Part shown: in pieces, positions 33,594 to 40,218 of the stretch
Position numbering within the stretch: the stretch's first letter is position 1
Layout of the letters: every line of letters begins with the position of its first letter
NCBI GenBank assembly: GCA_003280965.1
Contig: QCDI01000003.1
Location: forward strand, 1-64,000
Reading direction: 5' to 3'
DNA: 64,000 nucleotides
Source: Prochlorococcus sp. AG-355-B18
Lineage (GTDB): Bacteria > Cyanobacteriota > Cyanobacteriia > PCC-6307 > Cyanobiaceae
The notes under the pieces: generated by a model
What the model was told of the DNA's origin: nothing
What the model saw: only the letters and a program-made list of their open reading frames with translations
Database searches by the model: none
Position numbers and translations under genes: made by a program

Positions 33594-34136
33594 TCTGGGA
33601 AGATTTCTTGATTTTGATTGAACTTGTTGGTTTGATTGAACTCTTGAAGTATTATTCTCTTTTTCTGAAGCTCTTTGCCATCTTTCAACTTTGAAATCCA
33701 TTTCATCTGGCCAATCTTCGTCCTTACTCTCTCTCACATAAGGTAATTTTTTTTGCTCAGTTGTCTGTATATTTTTTGGTCGCCTTAAAGATATTGCTTC
33801 TAAAGGTCTTTTTGAGTGCTGTTTAGCAGATTCATAAAAATTTGATTCTCTAGAAAATGTCTTAATATCGCTGTTATCATCGTAAAAATTCTCATCATCC
33901 CAATCATCATTTTCTTCATCAAAAAATAAATCCACTTTTTCAGATACCCATCTTCCTACTTTTTTCACACTCTTACTTGTTATTCCTTGAAAATCTGAGT
34001 TCCTTCTTTTTCCTGGTCTAGCACCAGATACTCCATCAACAAATTGTCTTCCAGTTTCGAAAATTTTATCAACCTGTTTATCAACAATATTTTTATCAAA
34101 ACTATTTCTAAGATTTCTGATTCTCCTTGAATCCAT
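33573..34136 (-). CDS. Hypothetical, largely disordered charged protein
   Basis: 187-aa ORF with acidic D/E patches and an Arg-rich C-terminus; no catalytic or helicase motifs. Confidence 0.75.
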   Translation of the reverse strand: MDSRRIRNLRNSFDKNIVDKQVDKIFETGRQFVDGVSGARPGKRRNSDFQGITSKSVKKVGRWVSEKVDLFFDEENDDWDDENFYDDNSDIKTFSRESNFYESAKQHSKRPLEAISLRRPKNIQTTEQKKLPYVRESKDEDWPDEMDFKVERWQRASEKENNTSRVQSNQQVQSKSRNLPRSRRRRV

Positions 34137-34219
34137 AAATTATTTTGCTTTTTAAAATATAAATTACATTAAAAAAATAAATAATTCCAAAAATAGAAAC
34201 AAAAACACATCTTATATTT

Positions 34220-34747
34220 TTAATCAAACAAAATTAAACAGTTTTTATTCCATGATCCATTAAAGAAATTTACACAACATTTTTTACAGGCAATATTCTT
34301 TATCCTTTTCCTGTAGAAAAATTTCTCACCACAATTTTGACAAGTTCCTATGTATTTTAATTCTCTCCTTTCAATAGGAAATGAGTGCCTCACAGAAATT
34401 TGAAAATTCTTCTCTTTCTCATTAATTTCATTCATCTTTTCTAAGAAATTTGGACCATGTATCTCATTTTTTTTTAATATCCTATCTACCCATGCATGAA
34501 TCATTTCATGACATAAAGTACTGTTTATTTCACTAGTAGATAATTTACTCAAAATAGGTTTCGATAAGATAATTTCAGAATCTATAAAACCATTAATACG
34601 TTTTCTTTTATAAAAACCAGCAGTAGTTTTTAATCTATTATCACTCCATCTAACATTTACTAAAGGGAGATTATTAACCGTTAAAGAATTTTCAAAATAT
34701 TGGCTATTAAATCTATGAAATAAGGGTAAAAGAGGAATTACAGGCAT
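34220..34747 (-). CDS. SprT-family zinc metalloprotease
   Basis: RLKTTAG, LCHEMIH (HExxH), HGPNF and a C-terminal CQNC...CKKC zinc ribbon. Confidence 0.9.
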   Translation of the reverse strand: MPVIPLLPLFHRFNSQYFENSLTVNNLPLVNVRWSDNRLKTTAGFYKRKRINGFIDSEIILSKPILSKLSTSEINSTLCHEMIHAWVDRILKKNEIHGPNFLEKMNEINEKEKNFQISVRHSFPIERRELKYIGTCQNCGEKFFYRKRIKNIACKKCCVNFFNGSWNKNCLILFD

Positions 34748-34832: not shown

Positions 34833-35252
34833 ATGGATGCAACACTAGTTAAAGATATCGGAATTAAAGCATTATTAGTTGGCGGAGCTGTACTAGTTTC
34901 TTTTTGGACTTTTAATGCAGTCAAATTAGTTATAAGCGCCAGAGGAATTAATCCATTAGTAAGAAAGTTTTTTGATCAAATAGCTGCAGGCAGAATTGAT
35001 GCAGCTTATGGTTTGACTACAAAAACTTATAAAACTCACGTTAAACGCCAAGACTTTCTTAAATTTTTAGCTAGTTTAAACCTCAATAAATACAGAAATT
35101 TAAAATCAGGAAGGCCTAGAGTCCAAGAAGATCAAATCATTATAACTTTGAATTTAAAATCAGAAGACAAACAAGATGAGCTCCCATTAGATTTTACTTT
35201 TGCAAAAACTGACAATGATTGGAAAATAGACAGAATAGCTAAAGTGAATTAA
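34833..35252 (+). CDS. Hypothetical membrane-anchored protein with a probable NTF2-like domain
   Basis: N-terminal hydrophobic helix, FFDQIAAGRIDAAYGLTT helix pattern and terminal DWKIDRI strand. Confidence 0.7.
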   Translation: MDATLVKDIGIKALLVGGAVLVSFWTFNAVKLVISARGINPLVRKFFDQIAAGRIDAAYGLTTKTYKTHVKRQDFLKFLASLNLNKYRNLKSGRPRVQEDQIIITLNLKSEDKQDELPLDFTFAKTDNDWKIDRIAKVN

Positions 35253-35261
35253 TAATCTCTT

Positions 35262-36590
35262 GTGAGGCACAAAGAATTGTTTAAAGAAGCAATAATACAT
35301 CAATTAGAATTACACCCAAGTAGATTAGATAAAGAAAAAATCATCTCAGAAGCAATGGAAGAAGGTCTAGATGATTTTTTTGAAGGTATTCGTATGGCAC
35401 TTGATCCATTAGTAACTTTTGGTGTAAAAATTGTCCCTGAGAAAGAGACTGAAAAAAGTCAAAATTTTTTATGGGAAGATTTTAGAAAATTAGCCAATAA
35501 GCTTATTCAAAGAGAACTTACTGGTCACGCTGCTCGCGATGCAATTCATACGGCTATGGAATCTGCAACAAAAGAAGAGTGGAATGGATTTTATAGACGA
35601 GTTTTAATTAAAGATCTTAGATGTGGTGTATCTGAAAAAACAATCAACAAGATAGCAAAGAAATTTCCCAAATATGCTATTCCTATTTTTTCTTGTCCTT
35701 TAGCTCATGACAGTGCAAATCATGAAAAAAAAATGATAGGGAAAAAGCAAATTGAAATCAAATTAGATGGTGTACGCGTCTTAACTATTATTAGACAAAA
35801 TAAAGTAGAAATGTTTTCTCGTAATGGGAAACAATTCCATAATTTTGGTCATATTATCTCAGAGATAGAAAACGCCTTAAAAGAAGACCCAGCACCTTAT
35901 GACTTAGTACTCGATGGTGAAGTGATGAGCGCTAACTTTCAAGATTTAATGAAACAGGTACATAGAAAAGATGGCAAACAAACCAAAGACGCAGTTCTCC
36001 ACCTATTTGACTTATGCCCCCTTGAAAACTTTCAAAAAGGTAGATGGAACACTAGTCAAACAAAAAGAAGTTTATTAGTAAAAGAATGGGTAGCAAAACA
36101 TTCTATACTTCTAAAACATATACAAACACTTGAATGGGAAAATGTAGATCTCGACACTATTGAAGGACAAAAAAGATTTATAGAGCTGAATAAATCTGCT
36201 GTTGAAGGTGGGTATGAAGGAGTAATGATTAAAGATCCTGATGCTATGTATGAATGTAAAAGAACACACAGTTGGTTAAAAGCAAAACCTTTCATTGAAG
36301 TCACTTTAAAAGTTGTATCGGTTGAGGAAGGTACAGGACGCAACAAAGGGAGACTGGGAGCAATCCTGGTAGAAGGAGAAGATGATGGGTATAAATACAG
36401 TCTTAGTTGCGGAAGCGGATTTAGCGATATTCAGCGTGAAGAATATTGGTCAAAACGTAATCATCTCGTTGGTCAACTTGTAGAAATCAGAGCTGATGCA
36501 AAAACTAAGTCAAAGGATGCAGTGGCTTTTAGTCTTAGGTTTCCTAGATTTAAATGCTTTAGAGGATTTAAAGATGGAGAAAAAGTTTAA
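35262..36590 (+). CDS. ATP-dependent DNA ligase with N-terminal DNA-binding, adenylation and OB domains (start GTG 35262 or TTG 35277)
   Basis: Motif I EIKLDGVR, III VLDGEV, IIIa LHLFD, IV YEGVMIK, V WLKAKP and VI SLRFPRF; OB domain with CGSGFSD. Confidence 0.95.
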   Translation: MRHKELFKEAIIHQLELHPSRLDKEKIISEAMEEGLDDFFEGIRMALDPLVTFGVKIVPEKETEKSQNFLWEDFRKLANKLIQRELTGHAARDAIHTAMESATKEEWNGFYRRVLIKDLRCGVSEKTINKIAKKFPKYAIPIFSCPLAHDSANHEKKMIGKKQIEIKLDGVRVLTIIRQNKVEMFSRNGKQFHNFGHIISEIENALKEDPAPYDLVLDGEVMSANFQDLMKQVHRKDGKQTKDAVLHLFDLCPLENFQKGRWNTSQTKRSLLVKEWVAKHSILLKHIQTLEWENVDLDTIEGQKRFIELNKSAVEGGYEGVMIKDPDAMYECKRTHSWLKAKPFIEVTLKVVSVEEGTGRNKGRLGAILVEGEDDGYKYSLSCGSGFSDIQREEYWSKRNHLVGQLVEIRADAKTKSKDAVAFSLRFPRFKCFRGFKDGEKV

Positions 36591-36705: not shown

Positions 36706-36858
36706 ATGACGAATAAAACAGTTTTCAACTTCATAAAAACACCTTGTGGACAGGCAAAATATATCGAATTAGAAGCCAACAAAACTTTACTAGGTAAATT
36801 AAGGCTTTTTTGGTTTATCTTAATTGCATCAATTAGAGATTGGAATATTAAAGAGTAA
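36706..36858 (+). CDS. Small hypothetical protein (50 aa), absent from the ORF track
   Basis: Hand translation: MTNKTVFNFIKTPCGQAKYIELEANKTLLGKLRLFWFILIASIRDWNIKE*. GAGAGA precedes the ATG, and the ORF fills the ligase-DedA gap. Confidence 0.65.
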   Translation: MTNKTVFNFIKTPCGQAKYIELEANKTLLGKLRLFWFILIASIRDWNIKE

Positions 36859-36862
36859 ATTC

Positions 36863-37465
36863 CTAAGATTTTTCAAAATATTCTCTGGAGTATTTAGCTG
36901 AGAAATATACAACTAAAAAAGTTGAAATAATTCCAATACTAGTAATATATAAATTATTTGGTGATTGCACATTTTTTAACTCCTGAATACTTTTTGCCAA
37001 ACTACCTATCGAGCAATAAAGAAAAGTTCCTGGAATTATTCCAAGAAGACCAAGAGCGAAGTCTCTAAATTTAACATTATTCAAACCATAAAAATAATTC
37101 AGAATACTGAAGGGAAATATCGGCGATAGTCTCGCTAAAAAAATTAATTTAAGTCCGCCTTTTTCTACTACTTTTTCCATTAGACTTAATTTTGGATAAC
37201 GACTAAAAAGATTTTTTAGTTTTTTTGCGAAAAAACTTTTTGATACAAAAAAAGCAACTGATGCTCCTATGGAAGCGGAAATAAAAACGATAATTGATCC
37301 TAAATATGAGCCATATAAAAAACCTGATAATAAAGATAACCAAGAGGCTGGAAGTATTAATAATACAATTAAAATATAAATACAAACAAACGAAAAGATC
37401 CCAAAACCAGTATTAAAAAAAAAAGACAAATTATAAATATTTTCAAGAAATATATTCATTTTCAA
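36863..37465 (-). CDS. TVP38/TMEM64 (DedA superfamily, SNARE-associated) membrane protein
   Basis: Multiple TM helices, LPASWLSLLSGFLYG, LARLSPIFPFSILNY and GIIPGT. Start may be the ATG at 37459. Confidence 0.9.
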   Translation of the reverse strand: MKMNIFLENIYNLSFFFNTGFGIFSFVCIYILIVLLILPASWLSLLSGFLYGSYLGSIIVFISASIGASVAFFVSKSFFAKKLKNLFSRYPKLSLMEKVVEKGGLKLIFLARLSPIFPFSILNYFYGLNNVKFRDFALGLLGIIPGTFLYCSIGSLAKSIQELKNVQSPNNLYITSIGIISTFLVVYFSAKYSREYFEKS

Positions 37466-40218
37466 TTCAAAAGTTCGAGTTTTTTAGTAATTCTCTCCTT
37501 TTGCACCGAACCCTCATTTAATTTAAATCTGCATTCATCAACAATATCTTTTGGAGCCTTATCAACGAAATTTTTATTAGATAATCTCTTATTTAAATTT
37601 TCTAATTCAATTGTCACCTTTGTTAAATCCTTGATTAACCTTTCCTTTAATGCATCTATATTTACAAAATCCTGAAAAGGTAAGTAAACCTCTAAATCAC
37701 TAATTATCCCAGAAAAAGATTTAGCAAACTCTTTTTTATCAACAGCATTAGTTTTAAAAATAAATACTTCAGAAGATTTAGTTAAAGTTTGAATATCGTC
37801 AACTAAAGTTTTTAAAAAATCAATCAATTCATCATTGTCTGAAATTAAATATACAGGACCTTTTTCTGATGGCTTAAGACCTAATTCAGCTCTCAAATTT
37901 CTAATCAACCTAATAATTTCAAAGAGTTGCTGAAAAGAATTATCAAGCTTATTATCAACAAATTTATTTTCGTGAATTGGCCATTTTTGAAGAGATAATA
38001 ATGTATTATCTGGTTTTAGTTGCAGCACGTGCCAAAGTTCCTCAGTTATGTGCGGCATAAAAGGATGAATCATTACCAAAATATCATTGAGCACTTTAAT
38101 TAAAACTTTTTCAGATATTTGTCTATTTTTAGTCTCTTTATTATTAAACCTTTGTTTAGCAAATTCTACATACCAGTCACAAAAATCATTCCATGCAAAT
38201 TCATATAAAAGTTTCGCAGATTCTCCCAATTTATATTCTTTCAACAAAGCAGCGACTTTTATATTTACCTGATTCAATTTCGATAAAATCCACTTATCAC
38301 ATAACTCTAAAGAAGTTTCATCATTCTCATTAAGCGAATAATTATTGTTAGAAGTTTTATTAATTAAAACAAATTTAGTTGCATTCCATAATTTATTTGC
38401 AAAATTTCTTGAAGCTTCAACAGTTGAAGATGTATCTTTTTTCCTATCAAAATCAAGCCGGATATCTTGTCCAGCGCCTGCAACTTCTCGAATTAAAGCA
38501 AATCGTAGAGCATCAGAACCATATTTATCAATTAATAGTATTGGATCAATACCATTACCTGAACTTTTACTCATTTTTTTATTATTTTCATCTCGAACTA
38601 GACCATGAATATAAACATCCTTAAAAGGAATATTATTCGTAAAAGTATTACCCATCATTGTCATTCTGGCCACCCAGAAGAAAATAATATCGAAACCAGT
38701 AACAAGAACATTATTTGGATACCATTTTTTAAAATCCGGATCATTTGTATTTGGCCAACCAAGAGTTGAGAAAGGCCATAAACCACTTGAAAACCATGTA
38801 TCCAAAACATCTTTATCACGAACCAATTTAATATTTAATCCAAATTTTTTATTAGCTTCGATTAAGGCATCTTCTTCATTTCTTGCAACAATATATGGAG
38901 TATTTTGTTCTATTGAGTCTTGAGAGTCATCTAAAACATACCATGCTGGTATTTGGTGCCCCCACCACAATTGCCTACTGATACACCAATCATTAATATT
39001 CTCTAACCAATCCTTATAAACTTTCTCCCAACGTGGAGGAATAAACGATGGTCTTTTAGAATCAATTTCATTAAGACATCCTTGTGATATGTCATCCATT
39101 TTCAAAAACCATTGTGTTGACAATAAAGGTTCAATTGGTACCTTACCTCTATCAGAAAAAGGAACAGTATGTTTATAATCCTCTATCTTTGTCAAAAGGC
39201 CTAAGTTATCCAATTCTTTGATAATTTTCTTTCTAGCCTCATATCTATCTAAATTTTGAAAAATACCTGCATTAATATTTAAAGTTCCATCTTTGTTCAT
39301 TACATTAATCTGTTTTAAATTATGCCTTTTTCCTATTGCAAAATCATTTGGATCATGGGCTGGAGTAACCTTCACACAACCAGTACCAAAATCTTTATCA
39401 ACATGTGAATCAGCGATAATAGGTATTTCTCTATCAACGAAAGGGACTTTTACTTTGACACCAATAAATTCTTTATATCTATCATCATCAGGATTAACTG
39501 CCACAGCAGTATCACCCAAAAGAGTTTCTGGTCTTGTTGTTGCAACTTCTAAATACTTATCTAACTGTTCACCACTTTCAGAAAGTATAGGGTATTTAAA
39601 ATGCCATAAATGACCATTTACTTCTTGCATTTCAACTTCAAGATCACTTACGGCAGATTGAGATTCAGGACACCAATTAACCAAATATTCGCCTCTATAA
39701 ATTAAATTCTTTTTGTAGAGAATATTAAAAGCCTCAATAACTGCTTCATTTAATTTTTGATCAAGAGTAAATCTTTCTCTAGTCCAGTCAACTGAATATC
39801 CTATCCTTTTTAATTGAGAAACTATTCTTCCACCACTTTGTTCTTTCCAATTCCATGCTCTTTTAAGAAATTCATCTCTTCCAATATCCTCGCTTGTTTT
39901 GCCTTCACTTTTTAATTGTTTTTCGAGAATAGTTTGAACAGCTATTGAAGCATGATCAGTTCCTGGTAAACACAAAACATTCTTACCTAAAAGTCTTTGA
40001 AAACGTACTACAACATCTATCAAAGCAGTATTAAATGCATGCCCCATATGCAAAGATCCAGTTACATTTGGTGGCGGAATAACAACACAAAAAGGCTCCC
40101 CATCATCCTCAGGGGTAGGACTAAACGCCTTAAGACTTTCCCACTTTTCTTGCCACTTTTTCTCTACTTCAAAAGGTGAATAATTCTCTAAAGATAATTG
40201 ATCATTCATCTCTGTCAT
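37462..40218 (-). CDS. valS: Valine--tRNA ligase
   Basis: PPPNVTGSLHMGH, ATTRPET, WCISRQLWWGH, KMSKS and a C-terminal coiled coil. Confidence 0.98.
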   Translation of the reverse strand: MTEMNDQLSLENYSPFEVEKKWQEKWESLKAFSPTPEDDGEPFCVVIPPPNVTGSLHMGHAFNTALIDVVVRFQRLLGKNVLCLPGTDHASIAVQTILEKQLKSEGKTSEDIGRDEFLKRAWNWKEQSGGRIVSQLKRIGYSVDWTRERFTLDQKLNEAVIEAFNILYKKNLIYRGEYLVNWCPESQSAVSDLEVEMQEVNGHLWHFKYPILSESGEQLDKYLEVATTRPETLLGDTAVAVNPDDDRYKEFIGVKVKVPFVDREIPIIADSHVDKDFGTGCVKVTPAHDPNDFAIGKRHNLKQINVMNKDGTLNINAGIFQNLDRYEARKKIIKELDNLGLLTKIEDYKHTVPFSDRGKVPIEPLLSTQWFLKMDDISQGCLNEIDSKRPSFIPPRWEKVYKDWLENINDWCISRQLWWGHQIPAWYVLDDSQDSIEQNTPYIVARNEEDALIEANKKFGLNIKLVRDKDVLDTWFSSGLWPFSTLGWPNTNDPDFKKWYPNNVLVTGFDIIFFWVARMTMMGNTFTNNIPFKDVYIHGLVRDENNKKMSKSSGNGIDPILLIDKYGSDALRFALIREVAGAGQDIRLDFDRKKDTSSTVEASRNFANKLWNATKFVLINKTSNNNYSLNENDETSLELCDKWILSKLNQVNIKVAALLKEYKLGESAKLLYEFAWNDFCDWYVEFAKQRFNNKETKNRQISEKVLIKVLNDILVMIHPFMPHITEELWHVLQLKPDNTLLSLQKWPIHENKFVDNKLDNSFQQLFEIIRLIRNLRAELGLKPSEKGPVYLISDNDELIDFLKTLVDDIQTLTKSSEVFIFKTNAVDKKEFAKSFSGIISDLEVYLPFQDFVNIDALKERLIKDLTKVTIELENLNKRLSNKNFVDKAPKDIVDECRFKLNEGSVQKERITKKLELLN

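Follow-up and report, generated by a model that had tools for sequence, protein, structure and literature searches.

Which ligase closes the nicks of replication in a bacterium whose chromosome carries a phage-like, ATP-dependent ligase gene among housekeeping genes? Bacteria normally replicate using the NAD-dependent ligase LigA. In the stretch of 64,000 nucleotides analysed here (the window), we found an intact open reading frame of 442 aa with a GTG start at 35262..36590 (+ strand), which encodes a complete ATP-dependent DNA ligase in exactly the slot that ligA holds in sister lineages. Because this is the ligA position of related cyanobacteria, the enzyme is very probably the replicative and general ligase of the cell.

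The translation carries the motifs IKLDGVR (containing the motif I lysine K167, codon 35760-35762), LDGEV, HLFD, EGVMIK, WLKAK and RFPRF. Residues 156-342 (35727..36287, + strand) form the nucleotidyltransferase (adenylation) domain (PF01068 DNA_ligase_A_M, E 4.6e-22), and residues 356-434 (36327..36563, + strand) form an OB-fold domain of the OB_2 type with motif VI, RFPRF (PF14743 DNA_ligase_OB_2, E 1.6e-10). The N-terminal helical DNA-binding domain (residues 1-155; 35262..35726, + strand) had no Pfam match, yet it was aligned over its full length to a solved structure. In an alignment of 32 sequences, 14 key residues (K167, D169, G170, R172, D218, E220, F249, D250, E319, G320, K324, K340, K342, F427) were invariant between the ligase and 31 relatives of 40-56% identity. 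The adenylation-domain motifs and the OB domain with motif VI place the protein among the ATP-dependent DNA ligases of the covalent nucleotidyltransferase superfamily. The N-terminus is hydrophilic, and inspection by eye revealed no signal peptide. Many entries in databases have a length of 437 aa, which leaves an uncertainty of 5 residues in the position of the start codon. An earlier note, made from the letters of the window, had described a complete ATP-type ligase with all motifs, a helical N-terminal DNA-binding domain and no signal peptide, and this description held in every part.

The protein aligned to PDB 6RAU with an E value of 6e-289 over residues 2-442 at ~95% identity, with ~22 differences in 441 aligned residues as counted from the alignment. 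This structure belongs to Pmar-Lig, or 'AD-Lig P', of Prochlorococcus marinus (PDB 6RAU/6RAS/6RAR/6RCE), which is likewise 442 aa long and has an identical Pfam make-up; the ~22 substitutions are of strain level and bring no functional distinction. The nick-sealing activity of Pmar-Lig was captured in crystal structures (Williamson & Leiros 2019, PMC6698739), and a later paper describes its DNA-binding domain as seven helices that are structurally very close to those of T4 ligase (PMC7470946). The MIT9302 orthologue seals nicks in an ATP/Mg-dependent manner, and its specific activity is >10 times that of a low-light LigA (Hjerde et al. 2020 preprint, bioRxiv 10.1101/2020.05.11.089284). Judged by its ~95%-identical, biochemically active orthologue, the enzyme encoded in the window likely seals nicks as well. 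The genomic position given for AD-Lig P in the preprint, in the place of ligA and flanked on either side by a small conserved hypothetical gene, is the position found here. Full-length near-identity, the ancestral ligA slot and a genome without a complete NAD-dependent ligase assign the protein to the AD-Lig P group.

The core claim is already known. The earlier note mentioned that a replacement of LigA had been proposed for high-light Prochlorococcus, and the 2020 preprint indeed makes the same claim (10.1101/2020.05.11.089284). Because the claim is in the preprint and the structure is solved, our finding is a rediscovery. Apparently new against the literature are the genomes with this enzyme as their sole ligase, the sister clade that retains ligA, and the jumbo-phage relatives. 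In a full-text literature search, with the preprint's supplementary datasets outside its range, no paper turned up that reports the gene as phage-derived or describes a sister clade still carrying ligA.

The gene order around the ligase is rplI, dnaB, mnmG, chorismate lyase, SprT-like, a 139-aa ORF, the ligase, a 50-aa ORF, a VTT/DedA-family gene and valS. Two conserved small ORFs bound the slot: the 139-aa ORF upstream (34833..35252, + strand), separated by 9 nt from the start of the ligase, and the 50-aa ORF downstream (36706..36858, + strand). The SprT-like protein (34220..34747, - strand; PF10263, E 2.6e-25), the VTT/DedA-family membrane protein (36863..37465, - strand; PF09335, E 2.7e-23) and valS (37462..40218, - strand; Pfam) are all syntenic. 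In all loci examined, the 139-aa ORF lies immediately 5' of ligA or of the ATP ligase, at 62-94% identity. Downstream, the 50-aa ORF is the immediate neighbour of ligA in the clade that retains ligA and in low-light-type loci, and of the ATP ligase here and in genome G171. No mobility genes or tRNA genes flank the ligase, which lies between the dnaB-mnmG block and valS, as had been noted before.

The earlier note had proposed an in-situ, non-orthologous replacement of ligA, against which a full-length ligA elsewhere in the genome or a patchy distribution of the gene would have spoken. No full-length ligA was detected in the genome, which is 99.35% complete (best TIGR00575 score 52.6 bits vs a cut-off of 444.45), and the ligA OB domain PF03120 had no match in it either. 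Its sole NAD-ligase sequence is a 249-aa fragment on contig C5 that consists of the Ia and adenylation parts. Synteny, a check that the note had called for, showed full-length ligA in the same slot and on the same strand in 5/5 loci, drawn from five further genera of the family. The slot is also occupied by ligA in all seven ligA-bearing genomes of the same genus that were compared (7/7). Among 301 family genomes that are >=90% complete, 254/261 outside the genus passed the ligA cut-off, and all 40 from the genus contained NAD-ligase fragments only (best E 1e-11 to 1e-22). At the ligase locus itself, no relic of ligA sequence was detected (best tblastn E 0.17).

LigA (TIGR00575) and the ATP ligase share the slot, the orientation to both flanking small ORFs and the inferred cellular role. 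However, they differ in cofactor and architecture: the ATP ligase is built without the Ia, zinc-finger, HhH and BRCT parts, and its gene is ~0.7 kb shorter. PF01653 and the OB, zinc-finger, HhH and BRCT families of LigA are absent among the three Pfam matches of the ligase.

In a sample of 151 genomes of the genus, the ATP ligase was found in 125, ligA in 8, both in none and neither in 18. The ATP ligase is present in 48/51 high-quality genus genomes and in 18/18 genus genomes of the family sample, and the family's 63 other genera yielded no relatives of it. This is not a patchy distribution, and with ligA absent, the slot shared and the two genes never co-occurring, the proposed replacement is supported. 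The three high-quality genomes that miss the ligase (G421, G489, G494) and two that are <90% complete (G485, G393) also miss the 139-aa ORF, and a DNA search with the ligase locus had no meaningful result in G421, G489, G494 and G485. We read the misses in these five genomes as assembly gaps. Stop codons or a broken match in 4 of the 125 drafts (G463, G451, G447, G444; 74-82% complete) may be assembly errors.

The ligA-bearing genomes (8/151) form an uncultured clade within the genus that retains ligA in the slot. In a tree of dnaB, mnmG and valS, which as a species tree consists of three concatenated genes all linked to the ligase locus, the bearers of the ATP ligase (100/99) are sister to this clade (93/90). 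For gcvP, the one unlinked gene compared, identity was 71% in G482 of the ligA-retaining clade, 79% in G171 and 57-58% in low-light-type genomes, and the flanking genes of the ligA-retaining clade have identities midway between the high-light and low-light types. A living sister clade with ligA in the slot offers a natural control for why the swap happened.

The genome contains a second complete ATP ligase of 546 aa on contig C10 (PF04675 + PF01068 + PF04679; TIGR04120, E 2.2e-152). It belongs to the LigB type ('AD-Lig B') of the 'ligase-associated DNA damage response' set, which resembles the studied ligase in being ATP-dependent and in having an N-terminal DNA-binding domain but differs in its N- and C-terminal families (PF04675, PF04679) and is dispensable in the genus. 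The studied ligase itself scored 38 bits vs the TIGR04120 cut-off of 400, and PF04675 and PF04679 are absent from it. Its scores for the LigD/NHEJ models were also below cut-off (TIGR02779, 81.8 bits vs 227.75; TIGR02776, 71.1 vs 373.2), and Ku (PF02735) had no match in the genome, in line with the earlier reading that no Ku or LigD modules are present. LigD and LigE have the nucleotidyltransferase core in common with it, and LigE, a minimal ligase of the periplasm, also has an OB domain of the OB_2 type. LigE, however, is without the 155-residue N-terminal domain that the studied ligase possesses, and the studied ligase has no signal peptide by eye.

These other ligases raise an alternative, namely that the studied gene is an accessory repair ligase, while replication nicks are sealed by the second ATP ligase or by the NAD-ligase fragment with a partner. 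We consider this extremely unlikely. It draws on the completeness of the second ATP ligase and on the NAD-ligase fragment, which is kept in 40/40 high-quality genus genomes with its motif I lysine motif KIDG retained and therefore probably has some function. Passages of the 2019 and 2020 NAR papers, both from the same group, also call Pmar-Lig 'accessory' to a replicative NAD ligase (PMC6698739, PMC7470946). The preprint reports >=2 ATP ligases in all high-light strains (10.1101/2020.05.11.089284), whereas the TIGR04120-type ligase is missing from 6/40 high-quality genus genomes here, two of them closed, and in many other genera it occurs alongside ligA. Four near-complete genomes without it (G335, G345, G257, G018) have the studied gene as their sole PF01068 match, and G335 and G345 are each a single contig and 100% complete. 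That the studied gene is the only complete DNA ligase of these four genomes speaks against a replicative role for the second ATP ligase; since some of the genomes that have the studied ligase only are closed, the argument by elimination no longer has to dismiss the second ATP ligase by position alone. The fragment, for its part, is without the OB, zinc-finger, HhH and BRCT parts that its homologues need for ligation (preprint 10.1101/2020.05.11.089284, citing earlier work), and the studied gene alone occupies the ligA slot.

According to the literature on the orthologue, nicks are closed in the standard three steps. ATP adenylates the motif I lysine, here K167; the AMP is transferred onto the nick's 5' phosphate; the 3' OH then attacks, assisted by a metal ion. 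The duplex is encircled by the DNA-binding, adenylation and OB domains. By elimination and position, the ligase would join Okazaki fragments in vivo. Replication with an NAD-dependent ligase is regarded as an almost universal hallmark of bacteria. Prochlorococcus of the high-light type, among the ocean's most abundant phototrophs, would be a natural exception to this rule.

The description of the gene as phage-like was borne out by a match of residues 11-439 to the profile phrog_114 (E 3.9e-88), a family with a homologue in 1737 cultured-phage records, and by its nearest relatives, which lie on phage contigs. Among the phage ligases of this family (T4 gp30 type), the best cultured relatives are from SPO1-like Bacillus phages at 31-38% identity. 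From IMG/VR, 80 loci were kept that match the ligase nearly over its full length at 55.5-72.2% identity, and the closest (up to 72%) are on contigs of uncultivated marine jumbo phages. In the flanks of these phage ligases lie genes for a head maturation protease, a tail fibre and virion proteins, and the ligase-bearing marine phages carry auxiliary genes in the style of cyanophages, among them heme oxygenase, a bilin reductase, MazG, Hsp20 and 2OG oxygenases. CheckV estimates imply genomes of ~350 kb, from viral records that are fragments of 14-25% completeness (one 44%, one 77%), with one flagged as provirus. The cyanophage marker psbA was absent in 15/15 phage records, an absence that carries little weight as all are fragments. 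The ten closest representative clusters are all labelled 'DNA ligase 1'. Viruses of marine archaea (magroviruses) have been described with a ligase inside their structural module; we rejected this identity for the contigs here, as no MCM was detected in 5/5 records and the estimates point to genomes of ~350 kb rather than 65-100 kb.

Compared with the phage ligases, the gene in the window is chromosomal, lies in a housekeeping context, has host-like composition and has no phage genes nearby. Its GC content is 0.344 and its GC3 0.214, and the neighbours are alike (GC3 0.17-0.215). Outside the ORF, the flanks gave only short matches to phages at chance level. From the neighbour-like GC3, the lack of a ligA relic and the lack of phage homology outside the ORF, we infer that the acquisition is old.

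In the ligase tree, the Prochlorococcus ligases form a single clade (SH-aLRT 100%) nested among viral ligases. When the tree was rooted with an outgroup, two successive viral groups fell outside the group that holds Prochlorococcus (SH-aLRT 100, 97, 99). A clade of all 27 viral rows without Prochlorococcus was rejected (delta lnL 87.07, p-AU 0.0033), and a clade of the 18 innermost viral rows without Prochlorococcus was not (p-AU 0.215); the 18-row group, and one metagenomic row added to the 27-row set, were picked after inspection of the tree.

The replacement could also be real with the transfer reversed, so that phages took the ligase from Prochlorococcus, or both took it from another cellular donor. 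The statistically insecure innermost nesting leaves some room for this, as do the fragmentary viral records, one of them flagged as a provirus, and a phage host that is not established; in addition, the representative library contains relatives of 43-57% identity that are metagenomic proteins of unassigned origin. We nevertheless regard it as very unlikely, given the rejection of viral monophyly, the two outer viral groups, the broadly viral nature of the phrog_114 family and the lack of a relative in the 63 other family genera.

On the reading that phages were the donors, the ancestor of the clade to which this genome and G171 belong would have acquired the gene once, from a marine jumbo phage, after the split from the sister clade that keeps ligA. 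The insertion would have replaced ligA precisely and later taken on the base composition of the host. On balance, we lean towards a swap on one internal branch of the genus with a donor lineage that is still in the ocean. This phage group as the likely source would mean that a free-living bacterium obtained a core enzyme of replication from a virus; if true, the system would provide a before-and-after pair together with the donor for the replacement of such an enzyme by a phage gene.

Marine metatranscriptome contigs from four studies cover the ligase and span the junction with the upstream 139-aa ORF; as contigs of RNA libraries they may include DNA carry-over, spanning the junction is no proof of a single transcript, and depth was not used to rank expression. 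Contigs break recurrently upstream of the ligase. A repeat as the cause was rejected, as no second genomic copy was found, and the site of the breaks has a GC content of 18-21%.

The ATP ligase gene (35262-36590, + strand) is an uninterrupted ORF of 442 codons with a GTG start. Its translation contains all the ligase motifs quoted in the earlier note, as well as an ATP-dependent ligase adenylation domain at residues 156-342 (Pfam PF01068, E 4.6e-22) and a ligase OB domain of the OB_2 type at residues 356-434 (PF14743, E 1.6e-10). Across an alignment with 31 relatives (40-56% identity), the key motif residues do not vary, the motif I lysine K167 among them. The protein matched PDB entries 6RAU, 6RAS, 6RAR and 6RCE ("ATP-dependent DNA ligase") over residues 2-442 at E 6e-289, with about 22 differences counted by eye on the alignment. 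These results confirm the observation of a complete ATP-type ligase. We also compared it with 13 NCBIfam ligase models, none of which reached its cut-off (the top one was the NHEJ ligase domain, 81.8 bits vs 227.75), indicating that the ATP ligase is not of the LigD, LigB or LigC type. Ku was not found in the window's genome, in line with the earlier note, which saw neither Ku nor LigD modules with this gene.

The four PDB entries are structures of the P. marinus ligase Pmar-Lig, described as captured before and after phosphodiester bond formation (PMC6698739). According to a review by the same structure group, seven helices make up its N-terminal DNA-binding domain, which is structurally very similar to that of T4 DNA ligase (PMC7470946). 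Since a near-identical orthologue has been crystallised, the mechanism of the ATP ligase has experimental footing in that orthologue. By analogy with Pmar-Lig, ATP would adenylate the lysine, AMP would then pass onto the 5' phosphate, and the 3' OH would attack with metal assistance, with the three domains encircling the nick during sealing.

The gene is surrounded by housekeeping genes (gcvP, gcvH, rplI, dnaB, mnmG, chorismate lyase, an SprT-like gene, valS and tRNA-Val, and further mazG, speE, speB, gcvT, aspS and pyrG). No integrase, transposase or phage gene was found among them, in agreement with the earlier note. Its composition is host-like (GC 0.344; GC3 0.214, neighbours 0.17-0.215). 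The gene order of the window is conserved in five other genera of the family (G060, G041, G011, G009, G066), running mnmG, chorismate lyase, 187-aa ORF, SprT, 139-aa ORF, ligA, VTT-family gene and valS. In 5/5 of these loci, ligA lies on the same strand in the exact interval occupied by the ATP ligase, which answers the synteny comparison proposed earlier. The swapped segment starts 9 nt past the stop of the upstream 139-aa ORF (34833-35252) and ends 115 nt short of a conserved 50-aa ORF (36706-36858), which lies downstream of the ligase gene of either type. Because both flanking ORFs are conserved, the swapped segment barely exceeds the ligase ORF. Neither a relic of ligA (best E 0.17) nor, outside the ligase ORF, any resemblance to phage contigs was detectable at the locus.

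Marine metatranscriptome contigs, from libraries of four different studies, cover the ATP ligase in 28-30 of 30 bins, and two of them bridge its junction with the 139-aa ORF. This fits co-transcription of the two genes, although contigs from RNA libraries may include DNA carry-over. Further upstream, a very AT-rich stretch (34101-34300, 18-21% GC) separates the SprT-like gene from the 187-aa ORF, and contigs of many drafts from the genus begin at this stretch, about 930-1070 nt upstream of the ligase. As the stretch is not a repeat within this genome, the contig breaks are probably due to its low GC.

In a family sample of 301 genomes, the ATP ligase was present in 18/18 genomes of the window's genus, window included, and had no real match in the remaining 63 genera. 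In a genus sample, it was found in 125/151 genomes, or 48/51 among the high-quality ones. Thus, the distribution is not patchy or island-like, a pattern that the earlier note had held against replacement. Of the 125 matches, four are broken or contain stops, all in 74-82% complete drafts, and these may be errors. The neighbouring 139-aa ORF was also not found in 5/5 tested genomes without the ATP ligase (G421, G489, G494, G485, G393), and the first four yielded no meaningful DNA match to the locus and no complete ligA; we therefore read these five misses as assembly gaps.

For ligA, we used 301 family genomes with completeness of at least 90%. It scored above cut-off in 254 of them, all outside the window's genus (254/261), and 40/40 high-quality genomes of the genus gave fragment-level matches only (best E 1e-11 to 1e-22). 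The window's genome (1.58 Mb, 24 contigs, 99.35% complete) likewise lacks the full-length ligA whose presence would have spoken against replacement: the TIGR00575 score was at most 52.6 bits (cut-off 444.45), and the ligA OB domain PF03120 had no match even at E 1, with the control positive in 12/14 reference genomes. The sole NAD-ligase sequence is a 249-aa ORF outside the window (contig C5, 117576-118325; locus L001, 1315-2064), comprising only domain Ia and the adenylation domain, with motif I KIDG kept and an end near motif V. A fragment-level match in 40/40 high-quality genomes suggests some retained function. The fragment is flanked by a photolyase-like gene (FAD_binding_7) and a short-chain dehydrogenase.

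The genome also encodes a second complete ATP ligase of 546 aa (contig C10, 20549-22189; PF04675, PF01068 and PF04679), which meets TIGR04120 and might itself seal replication nicks, leaving the gene under study accessory. Ligases of the TIGR04120 type occur in 34/40 high-quality genomes of the genus and are missing from six, two of them closed single-contig genomes; in many other genera they are found together with full-length ligA (e.g. 22/22 and 24/27 genomes). In four genomes (G335, G345, G257, G018), the gene under study is the only PF01068 hit and ligA is present as fragments only, so that the ATP ligase is the sole complete DNA ligase detectable there. By elimination, these four genomes, besides the genomic position, argue against the second ATP ligase as the replicative enzyme. 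Overall, the interpretation in the earlier note, a replacement of ligA by the ATP ligase, is supported. Additional ATP-ligase-like sequences were seen in G385 (C11, 47554-48045; 463-aa frame) and G494 (C2, 114170-115893; a weak PF01068 match adjoining a hit to the ligA model at its C-terminal end, the BRCT part). Both may be cases of "AD-Lig W", which a preprint names as a rare third ligase (10.1101/2020.05.11.089284).

The same preprint, with which both the inference of the earlier note and its mention of a previous proposal agree, reported only truncated NAD-ligase genes in high-light P. marinus strains. Its AD-Lig P, the orthologue of the ATP ligase, sits at the genomic position of low-light ligA, is ATP-dependent and has a specific activity >10 times that of a low-light LigA, and the preprint concluded that replication in high-light strains must use an ATP ligase (10.1101/2020.05.11.089284). 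The structure has been known since 2019 and the replacement claim since 2020. The sole-ligase genomes extend beyond the preprint's statement that every high-light strain has two or more ATP ligases. Together with the ligA-retaining sister clade, the tight swap boundaries and the relatives on jumbo phages, they form additions that are modest but can be tested, and full-text literature searches found no published account of any of these.

Within the genus sample, 8/151 genomes carry ligA, seven at full length (763-779 bits) and one truncated at a contig end, and the ATP ligase was not found in any of the eight. Over the 151 genomes, the ATP ligase was counted in 125, ligA in 8 and the two together in none; the remaining 18 have neither. 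In 7/7 ligA-retaining genomes examined, ligA occupies the same slot. In identity to the window's proteins, their flanking proteins rank between those of low-light-type genera and those of G171, which among the ATP-ligase bearers examined diverges most (clade vs G171 and low-light-type genera: dnaB 91-94% vs 97% and 82-83%; mnmG 77-79% vs 86% and 67-69%; valS 68-71% vs 81% and 60-62%). In a species tree of dnaB, mnmG and valS, all linked to the locus (13 rows, 2043 columns), the genus forms one clade (100/100), in which the genomes bearing the ATP ligase (100/99) and those retaining ligA (93/90) are sister groups. The unlinked gcvP, on another contig, agrees with this tree (G482 71%, G171 79%, two low-light-type genomes 57-58% identity). 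The ligA-retaining genomes are 59-91% complete drafts, G482 with 8% contamination. From the sister position and the intermediate identities, the swap is best placed, as a single event, on the branch to the ancestor that the window's clade shares with G171.

Two further features of this clade were observed. The SprT-like gene beside the slot matched over just 33-71 of its 175 residues, or not at all, in 4/7 genomes examined (L126, L127, L128 and L132, from G472, G503, G465 and G482); the other three have it at full length, a pattern suggestive of its decay in part of the clade. The ligA of the clade (L126-L132) is only 50-53% identical to that of a low-light-type genome, compared with 58.5% between two low-light-type genera; on the branch that later saw its replacement, ligA may have been fast-evolving.

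The "phage-like" character of the ATP ligase was borne out. Homologues were found in 1737 cultured-phage records (phrog_114, E 3.9e-88), the best being distant SPO1-like Bacillus phages (31-38% identity). In IMG/VR, 80/80 loci kept carry full-length relatives with 55.5-72.2% identity (median 64.8%); the window and G171 ligases are 79% identical. These contigs are phage, with head maturation protease, tail fibre, virion proteins, QueD, 2OG-Fe(II) oxygenases and dCMP deaminase near the ligase. CheckV completeness of 14-25% for 50-92 kb contigs and 77% for one 275 kb contig indicates phage genomes of about 350 kb. In a ligase tree of 81 rows, with the root placed on distant relatives, a single clade (100) unites the Prochlorococcus ligases and sits within successive viral groups (support 99, 97, 100). 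Constraining all 27 viral rows to one clade without Prochlorococcus was rejected (delta lnL 87.07, p-AU 0.0033), and constraining only the 18 innermost viral rows was not (p-AU 0.215). Thus, the phylogeny called for in the earlier note supports a nesting of the Prochlorococcus ligases within the phage radiation, but not an exact sister group.

Concerning the hosts, psbA was found in none of 15 phage records, all of which are fragments. One viral record, a 69 kb jumbo-phage fragment (G524, loci L133 and L134) whose ligase relative is 71% identical, carries heme oxygenase, ferredoxin-dependent bilin reductase, MazG, Hsp20, ribosomal protein S21 and CsgG/CsgF (curli secretion), and weakly matches an outer-membrane-protein domain of cyanophages. 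In another record, the cultured relatives of a gene close to the ligase are confined to the Prochlorococcus phages P-SSM7, P-SSM2 and P-SSM5 (64-68% identity). These features hint at a cyanobacterial host; similar bilin genes are ascribed also to phages of other marine bacteria. G524 further contains GMP reductase, ClpS and ribonucleotide reductase, along with partial sequences of DNA polymerase III alpha and a clamp loader, and is flagged as a provirus by IMG/VR.
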